Program-made: the position numbers
Source of the DNA: Verrucomicrobiota bacterium
Lineage (GTDB): Bacteria > Verrucomicrobiota > Verrucomicrobiia > Limisphaerales > SXQI01
Direction of reading: 5' to 3'
NCBI GenBank assembly: GCA_033762115.1
Contig: JANRLX010000067.1
Location: 33,189 to 97,188, forward strand
DNA: 64,000 bases
Part shown: one piece after another, positions 21,001 to 30,000 of the stretch
Numbering within the stretch: the first letter of the stretch is position 1
Layout: every line of letters starts with the position of its first letter

Positions 21001-24000
21001 TTTAAGCATTCCGCAAGCGCGAACCAGGACCTCCAAATCCGCTTTACCTCCTGAATCGGAAAAACCGGTTATGGAAGGGGATGTTATTAGCGCCAGGGAG
21101 ATCGCTGCCGCATCCACAGCCGAGGTCCTCGGCAAAGCGGAACCTTCCGGCCGCACCCCTGGTGGCCCTGAAGAAATGCCGCTTAACGTCGTTCCCAAAA
21201 AACCTGCCGCCAAAAAAAGCAAGGCAATTACCGTCGCCTCCACCCCTCTTATCGGTAATTACAAATTACCGAGCATGGAGTTCCTGCACATGCCGGACAT
21301 TTCGGTGAAGCCCACCGAATCCAAGGAGGAATTAATGTCGAATGCCAGACTGATGCAGAGCACCTTGGCCCAATTTGATATTGAAGTGGCCCTGGGGGAC
21401 ATTACAAAAGGCCCCACCATTACCCGTTACGAATTGCACCCGGCTCCCGGAGTTCGCCTCGAGAAAATCTCCGCCCTTGGCAACAACATTGCCGCAGCCC
21501 TCAAAGCTGAACGGATTAACATCCTTGCTCCTGTTCCCGGAAAAAGTTCGGTCGGTGTTGAGGTTCCCAATGCTGTGAAAACCAAGGTCATTATGCGCGA
21601 CCTTCTTGAGTCAGAAGAGTGGCTGAATACCAAAGCGCGCATTCCCCTTGCCCTTGGAAAAGATGTCTATGGCCATCCGATCATTGCAGATTTGGCTGAG
21701 ATGCCTCACCTGCTGATTGCTGGAAGCACCGGATCCGGAAAATCCGTCTGCATCAACTCAATTATCGCTTCGCTGCTTTATCGCTTTTCGCCGGACCAGC
21801 TTCGTTTCGTCATGATCGATCCCAAAGTGGTCGAGTTGCAACAATACAACAGCCTTCCGCACCTGGTCGTCCCGGTGGTCAACGATCCAAAAAAAGTCAT
21901 CCTCGCCCTCCGTTGGGTGGTGAATGAAATGGAAAAGCGCTACCAGATTTTCGCGAAAGTCGGCGTTCGGAACATTAAATCATTCAACGAACGGCCCAAG
22001 GATAAACCGAAGGAATCAGACCAGCCTGAACTGCCACTCTCTTCCAAAAAAGAGAAAATCGAAACGAATGCCGAAGGAATGGCCGTGGAACTGGATGAGG
22101 AGATCGTGGTTCCCCGTGAGGATGAAATCGTCATTCCCGAAAAACTCAGTTACGTGGTCGTCATCATCGATGAATTGGCAGACCTGATGTTGGTTGCGCC
22201 AGCCGATGTCGAGATGGCCATTGCCCGTATTACTCAAATGGCCCGGGCCGCAGGGATTCATTGCATTGTTGCAACTCAAAGGCCGAGCGTTGATGTGATC
22301 ACCGGGGTGATCAAAGCCAACATCCCCGCACGTATCGCTTTCCAGGTCGCCGCCAAGGTTGATTCACGAACAATCCTGGATGCAATGGGTGCGGACAAAT
22401 TACTGGGAAAGGGTGACATGCTGTACCTCCCTCCCGGCGCTGCCAAATTGACTCGTGCCCAGGGGGTGCTTATTACCGACCAGGAAATCCAATCCGTGGT
22501 CGATTTCATTTCACAGCAGGGAAAACCAAGCTACGAGATGGAAATTCATCAACAGCTTTCCAAGCCGACCTCTGCTGGAGGCGATGGCGAGGAAGGGCTG
22601 GATGAGGACGAGGATTTAATCCAGCAATGTATTGAAGTTATTCGGAGCGAACAGAAAGCCAGTGTCTCTCTGATGCAACGTCGGCTTCGCCTCGGTTATA
22701 CCCGTGCGGCCCGGATCATGGATGAACTCGAGAACCGCGGGATCGTGGGGCCTAGCAAAGGTGCAGAACCGCGCGATATTCTTATCGATTTGGATGCAGC
22801 CAGTACCGATGGCAGTTCACGGTAAAGCTTTTGCCCAATTTGGATGAAGGAAGATTACATTGCCCGCAAGGAACGTTGGGCCAGAAAAATGGCCGGTAAG
22901 GAAAGACCTGCCGTTCGCTCAGAGGACCGCCTTCCACCCGGCCAGCGACAAGTACACAATTTCCCAGTGCTCGATTTGGGAATTCGGCCGGATATTCCCC
23001 TTGATAAATGGCAGTTAAAAATCCATGGGAAAGTGGAAAACCCAGTCACTCTGAATTGGGATCAGTTCATGGCGTTGCCGCAGTTCAAGGATGTCAGCGA
23101 TTTCCATTGCGTCACCACCTGGAGCCAGTTCGATATGGAATGGCAGGGCGTGGCGTTCTTTACCATCACTGACCTCGTGAAACCGAAGCCCGAGGCAACC
23201 CACGTTTTTTTCAAAAGCTTTGATGGTTACTCAACCAATAACCCACTTGACGTCTGCCTTGATGACGATGTGCTAATCGCGCATACGTGGAACGGAAAAC
23301 CGATCAGCCGGGAGCATGGCGGTCCAGCCAGAGTGATCATTCCGAAACGATACGCATGGAAAGGCGCGAAATTCATTCGTGAGATCACCTTTCTTGACCG
23401 GGACATCCTTGGTTTTTGGGAAGTGCGTGGATATTCCAACAGCGCCGATCCATGGTTGGAAGAACGCTTTTCTGAAGAGAAAGTTGGGCCACCCTGAACC
23501 TATCTCAATCGAATAAATGGCGGAAGGGGAGGGATTTGAACCCCCGGTAGGGTTGCCCCTACGCCTGATTTCGAGTCAGGTGCCTTAGACCACTCAGCCA
23601 CCCTTCCGTCGCCAGTATTTTCAATGGTTTTGTGAGGTTTTGTTGCCTCTCGATTTGCAAATCTGATACAGCAATGTGATACTATATTCATGAATGCCGA
23701 TCAATCGGAAGCAAAGGTTGACTCCGAAGACCAATCGCCATGGCAAAAAACACCTGTAGCGAATTTGGTCCGCTACATTCCATCTGGAATATATTTTGCA
23801 CGCGGACACGTAAACGGCAAGTTGATTCGGAAATCGCTGAAGACAGATCGAATCAGCGTCGCGAAATTTCGGCTCAACGACCTGATCAAGGAGGAGCAAC
23901 GGAAAGCGGAAGCAACAAAAGCCGTAGCAAAGGGCAAGATGCTTTTCAAGGACGCCCTTCACACGTATCGAGAACGCCTGAAGGCTGACCTTTCGTTAAA

Positions 24001-27000: not shown

Positions 27001-30000
27001 GATGTGTGATGGTTAGTTATTGTCGCGGTTCAACATTCTTGAGATGGCAAGGATCGCGGCGTTAAAAGCAATCTCGCGGTTCAAATCACGGTCAATCGCA
27101 AATCTCGCCAAGCCGAGCCGACGAATACCGCGATAACCCAACGACGTGTCCAAGACAGTCTTTTGCGGGTCGCAAAACGCCGATTCGGAAAGCCCTCCCA
27201 ATTGGCTGTGCGCCATGTAAAAAAGGAGAAGCCCGATGCTCGAAGCCACTTCATCACGGTCGCCTGCAACGAGATTGCCAGTTGAACATCCCCAGATTGT
27301 AAAAGTATCCAGCAGTTTCGAGCCGGGTTCGTGTGTAATTTTCGCGCCGGTGAACAATCCGAATTCAATTCGGGCAGCATCCGTCATCGCGACCAAAACC
27401 TCTTTGCATGTCGCGCCGAATGCGCCCCAGGCCGTGACCACATCGTGCGTCTTCGCCACGCTAGGACTTGTCAAGATGACGTGGACGCGGATTTTGAGCC
27501 CAAGCAATTTCGCAACATACCGGATGCGAGAGATGATGTAGAGCAAGAGTCCGGCAGCGGTTGATCCAAAACCCGACCCAAAGAGGTTTACGTCGAGAAC
27601 ATCACTGGCGAGAATCGACGTGCCCTGGTCGCACAATGCGCCGTATCGACAGCGATTCCTTTCAGTCGTAAAGAGATTGGAGAGGCTTTGAACAATCAAG
27701 GGATCTTCGGCCTTCCCAACATTCACCGCGAAAATCTTTTGCCCTCCAGCCCCTTCTTTCGATGTTGCAGGTGGAATCTTGTCGAGCTTTTCCGCATCGC
27801 GGCGCGTGCATGGATTCCGGCGGGCCATCGCAGCCAATTCTTGCGTGGTACGTTCATGCAGGATGATTACTTCTTCGTCTCCCAAGGAAACCGAACCTTT
27901 CGTTGGCCCCAACGTTACCGAGTAGTTTCGAGAGCTTTCCGCCGTGTCGATAACGAGCGTCGGAATGTGGGTCAATGGCTCATTGCCCATGAGCTTGGTT
28001 TCCCAGGCACGGTGATGTGTCCCAATGTATGTGCCCAATGTACCCAATCCGATATTAACACTTGGGTTGCGAACGCGGGGGGCGTTGTCAGTTGTGAATT
28101 TCATAATGATGTCCTATTCGTTTGGTTTCAGTTGTTAAATCGTTTCGGATTGCGGTTCGAGAGAGGGCATTTCTACTGCTGTCACACCTTGGAAAATCCA
28201 ACCCGTGGCAGGAAATGATTCACTGGCTGCTATTTGATCACCTGGGCGTAAACGACGCCTACCCGCCACGCTGACTCCATTGAGCTTTATTCCGCCCAGC
28301 GCAACTAGGACAGGTCTGCCAAACCAGTCACGTGCAATAGCAGAGGCGGTTCCACACATATCAGCGGGAGCCGAATGCGGTGGATTGCTCAGAATCGCGA
28401 CCTCTCCCGGACCCGCCACAATCACTCCGTGATTCTCGCCACTGGTCTGTTCGCTGAGTTCAATTTTCACCAAACGATTCCGGGCGTGGGTTGCAATACC
28501 AATGATGAATATCCCAGCAATTAGAATCAATCCGACCGCGCCGGCGGCGAGCTTTAAAGAAAGGCTCAATGGAGCAGGAGGCACTTTGGTGCGTCCTTCA
28601 ACGGGAGGTAGAGCACGCTTTCCGTCCAGACCGACTGCCTCGGAATTTGTTGCAACCTTTTTGGAAGCGACATAAGGCGTGGCTGCGTTGGTTTGGAAAG
28701 TGCGGCCCGGCAGATTGGCTTGTGCAACTTGTAATGGCGCGGAATTGCTCAAAGACAGAATGGGTCTATCCACAAAGACCTTTTGGACGTTCGTCACATA
28801 CTCGATCACCTTGTTTGTGACCACAGTGCGAGTCGTAATAGGAACCGACTTTTCAACGATGTTCGTTATGACGATGGGGGCTGGGGCAGGCATGGGCTTT
28901 TCAATCGTCCTGACAACTTCATTTGTAACGATGAGCGTCACGGGGGGTTGCACGGCGGGTTTTCGTCGCTCTGCCTCTTGGGCACTGCGAAGAGCAGTCA
29001 ACTGGGTTTGCAATTCGCCTTGTTCGCGTGTTAGCCGTGCGACTTCGGCGGCAGTTTTCCCAACGTCTGGTGAGCTCGGCTCCATTTGTGGGACGGCCTT
29101 CACTTGAGCCAGTTGGCGAGTGCAATCATCCAAAACTGTTTTTACATCGGTGAGCCCAGCGCGAATGAGATTGCGGTATTCGCCCTGTTTGCTTTGGAAA
29201 ACCTGAACGATGTTTGAGGTAGTGGCTCTTGTATTGAATTGCTTGTTCAAGCTGGCAACGCGCAGTTCAGCAGTTTGGAGCTGTTTGCGGAGGATCGCGT
29301 ATACCGCGTTAAGTTTTCGCTGTTCCTCACCCCGGATATATCCAAGCGAGGATTTGAGTTGTGAAATTCTGTCTGCTTCACCTTCTAAACGAATTCCAAC
29401 CAGGTCCGTGAGGAAGGACGCTCGGACCAATTGTTCAGGTGCTCCGGGAAGACCTGCATCAAGCAAGCGGGATGCGGACTCAAGGTTTCGCTCGATTTCC
29501 GAAAGCGATTCTTGAGATCTGCCTTGCTCGCTTTTCAAGAACTCACGAGTGTAAAACACACCGTTTTGTTGGGGCGCCGCTATCGCCGGCATGAACGCGA
29601 AGGCCACCAAAAACATCACGACCGCCAACGCACATCGACGATGAGCACATCCGGTTATTCTTCGCTTTGCGTCGGACTTCTCGAGCATCAGGGAAATTGG
29701 AGAAGAAAATTCCAAATTAAAGGTAGGGTCAACGCGGTGGGCACTAGTGGGTTTGGCCACTGTGGGTTCGACTGTCATATTAAGCTCCGTCCCGGGGTGT
29801 CTCTTTGTCGTCATATTCCTCATGCGTGACGGGAAATGTCGTCTCCATGACACGTTTGGAACGCCAGATCGTAGGATGCCAAGCGACTTTGAAGGCAGGT
29901 AAGCGTTAGCAGTTCGCACAGAACTATTGCGTGACTTCTTCTGGGGAGACCGTGACAGTATTCGGCTAGCCTAGAGCTATCCTGTAACTTGACTGGCCGA

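Follow-up and report, generated by a model that had tools for sequence, protein, structure and literature searches.

What kind of tubulin-family protein is encoded between two genes for membrane proteins, beside an integrase gene, in a Verrucomicrobiota bacterium, and what might the three products do together? We analyzed a 64,000-nt stretch of DNA (the window) that carries these genes, here called A, Tub, and C. Within the tubulin/FtsZ superfamily, Tub belongs to the FtsZl1 (Pfam Tubulin_2) branch, of which it is a highly divergent, stand-alone form; it consists of the GTPase domain alone, roughly 360 residues, and lacks the coiled coil and the alpha-helical C-terminal domain that share one chain with this domain in canonical FtsZl1 (~1000 aa). 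We tentatively favor a reading in which this FtsZl1-type protein and two inner-membrane proteins are encoded by one operon, travel as mobile cargo, and perhaps form an envelope-linked conflict device.

A rare three-gene unit beside an integrase and a tRNA gene

The open reading frame (ORF), ARAGORN, and PF00589 calls agreed with an initial annotation that had placed three co-oriented genes beside a tyrosine integrase and tRNA-Ser (Table 1). A, Tub, and C all read on the minus strand with gaps of only 34 and 30 bp between them, and the integrase gene converges on gene C, their stop codons being separated by 19 bp. Gene A starts at an ATG at position 29814 with GAGGAA just ahead of it, giving 559 aa, and its frame stays open as far as a GTG at 29919 (ORF 28135-29919, 594 aa). 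The spacer upstream of A is likely the promoter region of the A-Tub-C unit. Directly past the stop codon of the upstream gene it holds a GC stem followed by T8, a hairpin that is terminator-like by form alone, with a folding energy no better than that of shuffles (z 0.27); no sigma-70-like site was called on the minus strand upstream of A. The public gene call of Tub is a 325-aa form starting at M39, which removes the T1 loop, and relatives align from residue 1-8 of the 363-aa form. The statement that g01712 to g01714 match no family was confirmed by searches against Pfam (E<=0.1), PADLOC and NCBIfam (E<=0.01 each), and PHROGs (E<=0.001), the sole exception being a Pfam TnsD match for C (0.058).

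Table 1 Features of the locus (positions count along the window)
Feature	Position	Strand	Basis
tRNA-Ser (anticodon CGA)	23518-23607	-	ARAGORN; 5' end toward integrase
Tyrosine integrase, 498 aa	23690-25186	+	PF00589 E 4.8e-18; phrog_1 integrase E 5.4e-51
C (g01712), 590 aa	25206-26978	-	ORF, hydropathy, heptad score, homologues in related loci
Tub (g01713), 363 aa	27013-28104	-	ORF, AF2, fold searches, hhalign, motif columns
A (g01714), 559 aa	28135-29814	-	ORF and start codons, hydropathy, composition, heptads
Spacer 5' of A, 411 bp	29815-30225	-	Direct sequence reading

Tub is extremely rare, as had been claimed, and our counts were identical: 26 members at E<=1e-3 and 10 at E<=1e-10 in 1.84e9 representatives. 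In 5.8e9 proteins it forms 11 clusters, the window's own included; C is equally rare (11 clusters) and shares contigs with Tub. The related loci that show the A-Tub-C order are metagenome loci. Among these, A lies directly upstream of Tub in all seven whose upstream flank is at least 300 bp long, and C lies downstream in seven of the eight whose downstream flank reaches at least 100 bp, which bears out the proposal of a conserved three-gene membrane module. Purifying selection acts on A, Tub, and C alike, with dN/dS values of 0.066 for Tub, 0.11-0.14 for C, and 0.29-0.30 for A (dS 0.34-0.56). Across 401 genomes of the phylum, the Tub family profile had no matches beyond one canonical FtsZl1 and the window's genome, so that the window's genome alone carries the short form, a distribution that disfavors a cellular cytoskeletal function. 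The same genome has a normal FtsZ of its own. The module is accessory and probably dispensable cargo.

Fold, motifs, and affinity of Tub

The tubulin/FtsZ fold assigned earlier to Tub was clearly recovered. An AF2 model built on 26 sequences reached a pLDDT of 83.6 and a pTM of 0.82, and Foldseek gave 329 PDB matches at E<=1e-3, headed by CetZ2 (4b45), CetZ (3zid), FtsZ (2r6r), and PhuZ (9pm9). When 48,161 chains were compared by VIA-align, ranks 1 to 17 were all tubulin/FtsZ proteins (Z 13.7-18.5), and rank 18 was an SDR protein with a generic Rossmann fold (Z 8.6). Matches in BFVD were to PhuZ and phage FtsZ. Most VIA alignments ended near residue 240 (FtsZ/CetZ chain) or 285 (tubulin chain), and thus the canonical C-terminal domain of filament-forming tubulins was not recovered in Tub. 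The poorly modeled segment noted before at residues 305-338 reappeared in the new model as a weak stretch of the part that follows H7, with a pLDDT of 54-60 at residues 301-340.

The nucleotide loops of Tub are T1 (G19-L-G-T-L-G24), T3 (E117-G-A-G-G121), and T4 (G180-S-T-A-A-G185). In 10 close sequences G21, T22, G24, and G176 never vary, and at least 90% keep G178 and T182, the pattern of Gly-rich motifs originally described. Over the whole family (26 sequences, 20-67% identical), every member has G118, and at least 90% have G21, G180, T182, and G185. The invariant residues R283, F310, and D312 were also found, with R283 placed by the alignment and the AF2 model at the expected beginning of helix H8; no acidic T7 residue is conserved among the 26 sequences. 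T4 reads GSTAAG in Tub and GGTGSG in nine of nine sampled FtsZl1 proteins, and T1 carries T where FtsZl1 and FtsZ carry G (GTxG versus GGxG). With a noncanonical T4 and this T1 substitution, GTP binding by Tub is not assured. More distant family members have a near-canonical T4 (GGGGSG, GGGATG, and GGGGT in P0024, P0032, P0027, and P0035). By a crude heptad score, Tub has no heptad-rich segment.

Profile comparison placed Tub in the FtsZl1 branch. In hhalign, residues 12-360 of the Tub family profile aligned with residues 11-385 of canonical FtsZl1 proteins, the Tubulin_2 domain (probability 98.3%, E 1.9e-14, 326 columns), compared with only 51.9% over 69 columns for FtsZ. This full-length FtsZl1 alignment, set against the weak FtsZ alignment, identifies Tub as a stand-alone divergent FtsZl1-type domain. 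The Pfam model Tubulin_2 matches 9 of the 26 family members at E<=1 (best, 2.2e-7) and does not match the window's own protein at that threshold. In the genome scan, the Tub family profile also detected a canonical 1088-aa FtsZl1 (E 4.7e-17), which is adjoined by a vWA protein. The initial annotation had allowed that g01713 might be a far member of FtsZl1, and both the alignment and the detection of the 1088-aa protein show that it is. Its main claim, a further prokaryotic tubulin lineage, was overstated given the FtsZl1 alignment, but the short Tub family does form its own distinct, well-supported clade apart from the nine sampled FtsZl1 proteins in a quick tree (SH-aLRT 100). Tub is a reduced offshoot of the little-studied FtsZl1 family and not a wholly new tubulin lineage.

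Membrane partners and mobile context

Hydropathy of A (numbered here along the 594-aa ORF) showed hydrophobic segments at 94-118 and 449-480, from which two membrane crossings are predicted. A short cytoplasmic N terminus precedes the first segment. The predicted periplasmic part consists of a heptad-rich region (119-320; crude heptad score above 99% of shuffles at 119-157 and 197-320) and a Pro/Val/Thr-rich region with repeated VTN motifs (331-450, by composition), and the conserved domain at 481-594 would lie on the cytoplasmic side. In homologues this C-terminal portion of ~115 aa is 40-42% identical and the remainder about 27-31%; the window's A lacks an N-terminal lipoprotein domain present in relatives. 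C has a conserved, cytoplasmic N terminus and a two-helix transmembrane hairpin (45-93) whose turn, FAPxGxxAS, is invariant. Next come a helical region rich in heptads and a conserved C-terminal region from ~280 to 590; the crude heptad score exceeds 99% of shuffles at 135-204 and 514-547. C would be held by its hairpin, with the helical region and the conserved domain in the cytoplasm. Homologues of C immediately downstream of Tub in related loci are 53-58% identical. When C was compared by hhalign with the C-terminal 700 aa of FtsZl1, no similarity was detected (probability 0.7%).

The A-Tub-C cassette looks like one carried on mobile DNA. A TrwC relaxase gene lies 20 kb from the module, a D5_N/DUF5906 primase-helicase gene lies upstream of the module in five related loci (L003-L007), and SprT-like and DarB-like genes occur near it in related loci. 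The integrase, which adjoins the module in the window, had been said to be missing from relatives' loci, and indeed no homologue was found in L002-L010. It lies on the 5' side of the tRNA-Ser gene, which is not the usual arrangement in tRNA-targeting islands. Within the window we found neither att repeats nor island borders and no repeat of the tRNA-Ser or its adjoining spacer, and the GC content of the module does not differ from that of its flanks; L009 shows no mobile-element marker across 18 kb. Tub was not found in plasmid (72,556), phage (50,697 records), or IMG/VR collections. Taken together, mobile carriage is somewhat better supported than the initial annotation held, by the flanking genes of relatives and not by island borders.

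Possible roles and relation to known systems

We propose that the conserved T1, T3, and T4 loops of Tub would bind guanine nucleotide and that Tub would self-associate at the membrane. There it would dock, possibly by its conserved C-terminal tail, which ends in MLNRDNN, on A, C, or both, at their cytoplasmic parts. C might provide in trans the scaffold that FtsZl1 holds in cis, and A may link the Tub assembly to the cell envelope. The cassette would then be a membrane-docked, nucleotide-driven assembly switch, moved between genomes as cargo, often on mobile elements. By analogy with what has been proposed for other FtsZl1 systems, its role is perhaps that of an envelope-linked conflict device (defense or exclusion); a housekeeping cytoskeletal role is less likely. 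The module contains no vWA domain, GAP1-type GTPase, or recognizable effector domain.

A membrane-anchored cytomotive filament for membrane building or remodeling, in which Tub polymerizes head to tail and turns over GTP while A and C serve as dedicated tethers, would fit the fold and conserved nucleotide loops, the two membrane partners with heptad-rich regions, and the membrane remodeling role predicted for FtsZl1 (PMC2875224). We nevertheless consider it unlikely, as the canonical C-terminal domain was not recovered, T7 lacks a conserved acidic residue, T4 is degenerate, the genome already has a normal FtsZ, and the module, with 1 short-form genome among 401, is much too rare and scattered to have a cellular function. 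Similarly improbable is a nucleotide-binding regulator or pseudo-GTPase, with Tub a nonpolymerizing monomer or dimer serving as switch or scaffold and C or A as the real effector. The departures of T1 and T4 from canonical signatures in the window's subfamily, the unrecovered C-terminal activating domain, and the invariant R283, F310, and D312 outside the classical motifs speak for this possibility, but distant members keep a near-canonical T4, and the family-wide conservation of G118, G180, T182, and G185 argues for a working phosphate-binding site. Partitioning of the mobile element by a TubZ/PhuZ-like segregation device is disfavored and seems very unlikely. Tubulin-fold proteins of plasmids and phages do perform partitioning, the structural searches returned TubZ and PhuZ, and the cassette sits in a mobile-element context; however, the conserved unit has no gene for a DNA-binding adaptor, and its two partners of Tub are membrane proteins. 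The element in the window has integrated into, or at least lies on, the chromosome, Tub groups by sequence with FtsZl1 and not with TubZ, and the plasmid and phage records gave no matches.

The favored reading, a membrane-docked conflict device, can be set beside several known systems. With CetZ and FtsZ, the best structural matches (3zid, 4b45, 2vaw, and 2r6r), Tub shares the N-terminal Rossmann-type GTPase domain and core helix H7, and a weak profile match lines up its T3 (GAGG) and T4 with those of Aquifex FtsZ; sequence identity is only 9-14%, the C-terminal domain and acidic T7 are missing from the match, and FtsZ shows no sequence-level significance (E 1.8 against PDB FtsZ; hhalign, 52%). 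TubZ and PhuZ resemble Tub as tubulin-fold proteins on mobile DNA (structural Z 13.7-16.6) but differ in that Tub has membrane partners in place of a DNA-binding adaptor and was not found on plasmids or phages. An FtsZl1 protein joins a tubulin-like domain to a coiled coil and an alpha domain; a function in membrane remodeling was predicted for the family (Makarova & Koonin 2010, PMC2875224). The Tub profile covers the whole Tubulin_2 domain (PF13809), and both have extra inserts between T1 and T4, a divergent post-H7 region without an FtsZ_C/Tubulin_C domain, associated membrane and coiled-coil proteins, and a sparse, patchy distribution alongside normal FtsZ. In contrast, Tub has 363 aa rather than 920-1164 aa (no longer form was found, on weak evidence), its module places the coiled coil on a separate membrane-anchored protein and has no vWA, P-loop GTPase, kinase, or OmpA partner, its T1 and T4 signatures differ, and the window's Tub is itself missed by the Pfam model. 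Gene neighborhoods that combine tubulin, vWA, and GTPase have been interpreted as NTP-dependent conflict systems (Kaur, Burroughs, Iyer, Aravind 2020, PMC7159879). The partners that define them, the GAP1-N2 GTPase, FNIII-repeat protein, vWA proteins, and HSP70, are all absent from the window and related loci. These systems resemble the Tub module in pairing a protein of the tubulin family with membrane and coiled-coil partners, the tubulin being viewed as the NTP-dependent multimerizing component of a dispensable, laterally moving system.

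The A-Tub-C module and its two membrane proteins

Three co-oriented genes separated by gaps of 30 and 34 bp, referred to here as A (g01714), Tub (g01713) and C (g01712), make up the module. The sequence GAGGAA precedes the ATG of A at 29814. Given the 411-bp spacer between A and the next gene upstream, A-Tub-C probably forms a separate transcription unit. In this spacer, a hairpin with a T8 run is terminator-like, yet its folding is no better than that of shuffled sequences, and it was not retained as a terminator. The public gene call for Tub begins at M39 and yields a 325-aa protein from which strand S1 and the T1 loop are cut off; since homologues align from residue 1 to 8, the correct frame is that of 363 aa. 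No protein of the module matched a model in Pfam, NCBIfam or PHROGs or, at an E value of <=0.01, in PADLOC-DB 2.0, a library restricted to described defence systems. The coordinates and counts of the initial annotation were all reproduced.

Features of the window at and around the A-Tub-C module
Feature	Position	Strand	Remarks
tRNA-Ser(CGA)	23518-23607	-	
Tyrosine integrase, 498 aa	23690-25186	+	PF00589 E 4.8e-18; phrog_1 E 5.4e-51
C	25206-26978	-	convergent with integrase
Tub, 363 aa	27013-28104	-	
A	28135-29814	-	frame open to 29919
Five tightly packed genes (1095, 474, 403, 272 and 461 aa)	30226-38420	-	directly upstream of module
Peptide transporter and adjoining maturase	38704-44252	-	
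Predicted lipoprotein with TM helices, 264 aa	44561-45355	+	
TrwC relaxase with helicase domain	47059-49878	-	E 1.1e-77
Giant ORF, 2136 aa	50938-57348	+	no Pfam or NCBIfam match
Giant ORF, 1680 aa	57366-62408	+	no Pfam or NCBIfam match

Relatives of Tub are encoded in nine metagenome loci, which represent fewer independent lineages because L003/L004 and L005/L006/L007 are near-identical sets. A lies directly upstream of Tub in all seven related loci whose upstream flank spans at least 300 bp, and C lies directly downstream in seven of the eight whose downstream flank spans at least 100 bp. In the eighth, L010 (1244 bp; protein P0011), the Tub relative ends early (231 to 232 aa), diverging after ~residue 300, and the ~530 bp beyond it contain no C gene; this Tub relative is probably a degraded copy. 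C is as rare as Tub (11 clusters each), and the two share contigs. The window genes adjoining the module have no counterparts in the related loci, so that the conserved unit is exactly A-Tub-C; the three-gene membrane module noted earlier is borne out. At dS values of 0.34 to 0.56, dN/dS was 0.066 for Tub, 0.11 to 0.14 for C and 0.29 to 0.30 for A. Judged from sequence, A, Tub and C are all functional genes, and the fastest evolving is the largely periplasmic partner A.

Protein C has a conserved N-terminus and a transmembrane (TM) hairpin at residues 45 to 93 with a short, invariant outer turn (FAPxGxxAS). Its remaining features are segments rich in heptads and, towards the C-terminus, a long conserved region with invariant Cys, Arg and His motifs. 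Models of this C-terminal region were of low confidence (pLDDT of 42.5 for AF2 on 6 sequences; a poor 0.46 for the ESM Atlas model, whose neighbours all had TM scores of <0.5). In A, basic residues precede the first TM segment and follow the second, which predicts a periplasmic middle and a cytoplasmic C-terminal domain of ~115 aa. The predicted periplasmic middle is heptad-rich and Pro/Val/Thr-rich, and the C-terminal domain alone is well conserved (40 to 42% identity versus about 27 to 31% elsewhere). This domain contains a GR..NG..GD pattern that we take to resemble those of FHA domains and treat as a lead only. An FHA assignment was not adopted: Atlas feature scores to FHA clusters were 0.85 to 0.86, under the bar of 0.9, and neither the PDB profile search nor Pfam found such a domain.

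At their N-termini, the A proteins of the relatives carry a lipoprotein signal, a beta-rich domain and one additional TM helix; the A protein of the window lacks all three. A separate homologue of the relatives' N-terminal domain is encoded elsewhere in the window, as the predicted 264-aa lipoprotein (32% identity over 108 aa; E 1.4e-12). We did not accept this domain as MlaD-like, the Pfam MlaD matches of the relatives' domain reaching only E 0.19 and 0.1; the lipoprotein itself matched MlaD weakly (E 0.1).

Fold of Tub and its place in the tubulin superfamily

The AF2 model of Tub, built on 26 sequences, reached a pLDDT of 83.6 and a pTM of 0.82, with a weak stretch at residues 301 to 340 (pLDDT 54 to 60). 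When the model was compared exhaustively with 48,161 PDB representatives by VIA, ranks 1 to 17 were all members of the tubulin/FtsZ superfamily (Z 13.7 to 18.5; 162 to 251 residues aligned), with chains of CetZ, CetZ2, FtsZ, Asgard and Odin tubulins, gamma- and alpha/beta-tubulin, BtubA, TubZ and PhuZ among them; after rank 17, Z fell to 8.6, for generic Rossmann folds. Foldseek returned 329 PDB matches at an E value of <=1e-3 and 7 matches among viral models, to PhuZ and phage FtsZ. The tubulin/FtsZ fold first assigned to Tub is thus real. Most of the alignments run no further than chain residue ~240 in FtsZ/CetZ or ~285 in tubulins; they thus cover the GTPase domain and helix H7 and leave out the canonical C-terminal domain. 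A complex prediction for two copies of Tub with GTP, run without controls, scored 0.00 and speaks neither for nor against such a pair.

Loop T4 of Tub reads G180-S-T-A-A-G185, and the consensus of the short family (26 Tub-related proteins) is G-x-T-x-x-G; the tubulin signature [SAG]GGTG[SA]G is not present. For the FtsZ-like 1 (FtsZl1) family, Pfam Tubulin_2 (PF13809), the published signature is GGGTG(S/T)G, and the T6-H7 region is described as not alignable (PMC2875224). We found T4 as GGTG(S/C/T/R)G in 9/9 sampled FtsZl1 proteins and GGGTG in 7 of 10 correctly called FtsZ proteins. Loop T1 is G-L-G-T-L-G in Tub, where FtsZl1 and FtsZ have GGxG. G118 (T3) is invariant across the 26 short-family members, G21, G180, T182 and G185 are conserved in at least 90%, and a near-canonical T4 is kept in distant members; together, these features indicate that a phosphate-binding site is under selection. 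GTP binding by the subfamily to which Tub belongs is, from sequence, not assured. No acidic T7 residue is conserved across the 26 sequences. R283, at the start of the helix (residues 283 to 299) that follows H7, is invariant, as are F310 and D312. The close relatives of Tub have a C-terminal tail in common, (M/L)(I/L)N-P-x-x-N, in which N359 is invariant; this tail is a possible docking peptide.

The initial annotation had placed Tub in a further prokaryotic tubulin lineage. Tub itself gave no match to PF13809 at an E value of <=1 and thus falls outside the Pfam model, and the canonical FtsZl1 proteins used for comparison are far longer (9 proteins of 920 to 1164 aa from the phylum of the window). 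Tubulin_2 nevertheless matches 9 of the 26 short-family members at an E value of <=1 (best 2.2e-7), and the protein P0007 bears a precomputed PF13809 label. Searched over 401 genomes of the phylum, the short-family profile recovered only the window's own gene and one 1088-aa protein (E 4.7e-17), a textbook FtsZl1 (Tubulin_2 E 8.9e-65) with a vWA-PKD protein encoded just upstream. With hhalign, the short-family profile aligned to the 9 FtsZl1 proteins with a probability of 98.3% (E 1.9e-14; 326 columns), query positions 12 to 360 matching template positions 11 to 385, so that the entire protein is paired with the entire Tubulin_2 domain. The control against 11 FtsZ proteins, an alignment that includes one wrong-strand ORF left out of the tree described below, gave 51.9% over 69 columns (T3 to S5), and FtsZl1 against FtsZ gave 64.6% over 62 columns. 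In a quick maximum likelihood tree, the 26 short, 9 FtsZl1 and 10 FtsZ proteins each formed one group (SH-aLRT 100, 91 and 100, respectively), and the path from the short clade to FtsZl1 was about half of that to FtsZ. The Tubulin_2 matches, the hhalign result and the quick tree therefore place Tub in a distinct short clade on the FtsZl1 branch; the distinctness proposed earlier holds, and a new top-level lineage does not.

Genomic context of the module

The integrase gene abuts the module and lies on the 5' side of the tRNA gene. Integrase and TrwC relaxase together suggest the presence of an integrative mobilisable element spanning up to ~27 kb; the window showed no genes for type IV secretion. 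There was no GC shift at the module, and we found no att repeats in the window and no direct repeat of the tRNA/spacer region (exact 14-mers; 10-mer seeds extended to at least 16 bp). In two genomes of the same order, synteny is lost right after ftsK, in one of them at a contig end, and these genomes are too diverged to define the borders. Among the related loci, a D5_N/DUF5906 primase-helicase lies 1.5 to 3 kb upstream of the module in L003 to L007. It is intact (529 to 583 aa) in L005 to L007 and split into two ORFs in L003 (2682-3742) and L004 (4518-5764), and given this split, decay of the element that carries the module seems to be under way in some hosts. L004 also has a SprT-like gene and L005 a fragment of a DarB-like helicase; L009 carries an SMC-like ATPase with a metallophosphatase and no mobile marker. 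The module was not found in plasmid and phage collections (tblastn) or in IMG/VR, and related loci were found neither among genome contigs, by close or distant alignment, nor among viral contigs. Taken together, distribution and context point to the module being dispensable, laterally moving cargo.

Other genes of the window were also inspected. The five tightly packed genes upstream of A are absent from the relatives' loci. Their only family match is a weak one in the final protein, to a receiver domain at its N-terminus (Response_reg E 1.4e-5), and the five may form an uncharacterised system of their own on the same island. What looks like a peptide-modification cluster comprises an Opp-like ABC peptide transporter (SBP_bac_5, two permeases and an ATPase) adjoining a radical SAM/SPASM-type maturase (PapB-like, E 2e-13; weak pVip match in PADLOC). 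The stretch with the two giant ORFs has a GC content of 0.55 to 0.61, versus ~0.50 elsewhere.

Possible role and relation to known systems

We propose that Tub would bind guanine nucleotide and, at the inner membrane, self-associate on the portions of A and/or C that face the cytoplasm, and that A would link this assembly to the envelope. In the one-chain architecture of FtsZl1, a tubulin-like domain is followed by an extended coiled coil and an alpha-helical C-terminal domain (PMC2875224); C might play in trans the scaffold role of that coiled coil. Homology of C to the missing half was sought and rejected (best blastp E 2.5; hhalign 0.7% against the FtsZl1 C-terminal part), and we liken C to the C-terminal half of FtsZl1 solely as an architectural analogy.

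The initial annotation had further described the assembly as a cytomotive filament. The conserved tubulin core, as outlined in PMC10058229, includes a C-terminal domain linked by H7; this domain was not recovered in Tub, and "cytomotive" is therefore not supported. By analogy, we favour a conflict role, in defence or exclusion, which would fit the cargo-like distribution of the module and the reading of tubulin-vWA-GTPase systems as conflict systems by Kaur et al. (PMC7159879); none of the three proteins had an effector domain or a match to a defence model. A more elaborate version, which we consider improbable as a whole, would cast the cassette as a self-contained conflict device that acts across the envelope, belongs to mobile elements and is the first to be based on a tubulin. 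The fast-evolving periplasmic part of A would sense an envelope event, e.g., phage adsorption or DNA entry; its cytoplasmic domain would trigger nucleotide-dependent assembly of Tub on the C scaffold, with R283 serving in place of the usual acidic T7 residue; and the assembly would alter or breach the inner membrane via the hairpin of C. In that case, Tub would rank as the smallest tubulin-fold assembly unit in nature and would do without the canonical C-terminal domain. Should the simpler defence or exclusion role hold, a cytoskeletal-type protein would join the conflict repertoire of mobile elements.

Within the tubulin/FtsZ superfamily, no branch is more divergent than FtsZl1. We found no solved structure for FtsZl1 (phmmer with canonical FtsZl1 against PDB sequences gave no match at an E value of <=1), nor any tested function in the literature searched. 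For work on this branch, a soluble 363-residue protein with only two partners offers the most tractable start: it could reveal whether a tubulin-fold GTPase can assemble in the absence of the canonical C-terminal domain and an acidic T7 loop, and how FtsZl1-type systems act at membranes.

The genome of the window has its own FtsZ and no canonical FtsZl1. Unlike FtsZl1, Tub ends after the GTPase domain, all 26 short-family members being 332 to 383 aa long; a search for longer relatives (637 to 2000 aa) found none, which counts as weak evidence. FtsZl1 operons feature a vWA partner, frequently joined by a P-loop GTPase, a kinase or an OmpA protein, whereas no such domains occur among the neighbours in the window or in L003 to L009. 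TubZ-type partition systems likewise differ in having a TubR-like DNA-binding adaptor, which is absent here, the conserved neighbours of Tub being two membrane proteins. Such systems also reside on replicons that need partition, and the plasmid and phage collections gave no match to the module. The literature searched held no short stand-alone Tubulin_2-like protein with partners of the A/C type, although the supplements of PMC2875224 and PMC7159879 might list some. The cassette is thus a short, split, vWA-less variant of the known FtsZl1 kind with a degenerate signature, and it is chiefly valuable as a compact model of this branch.
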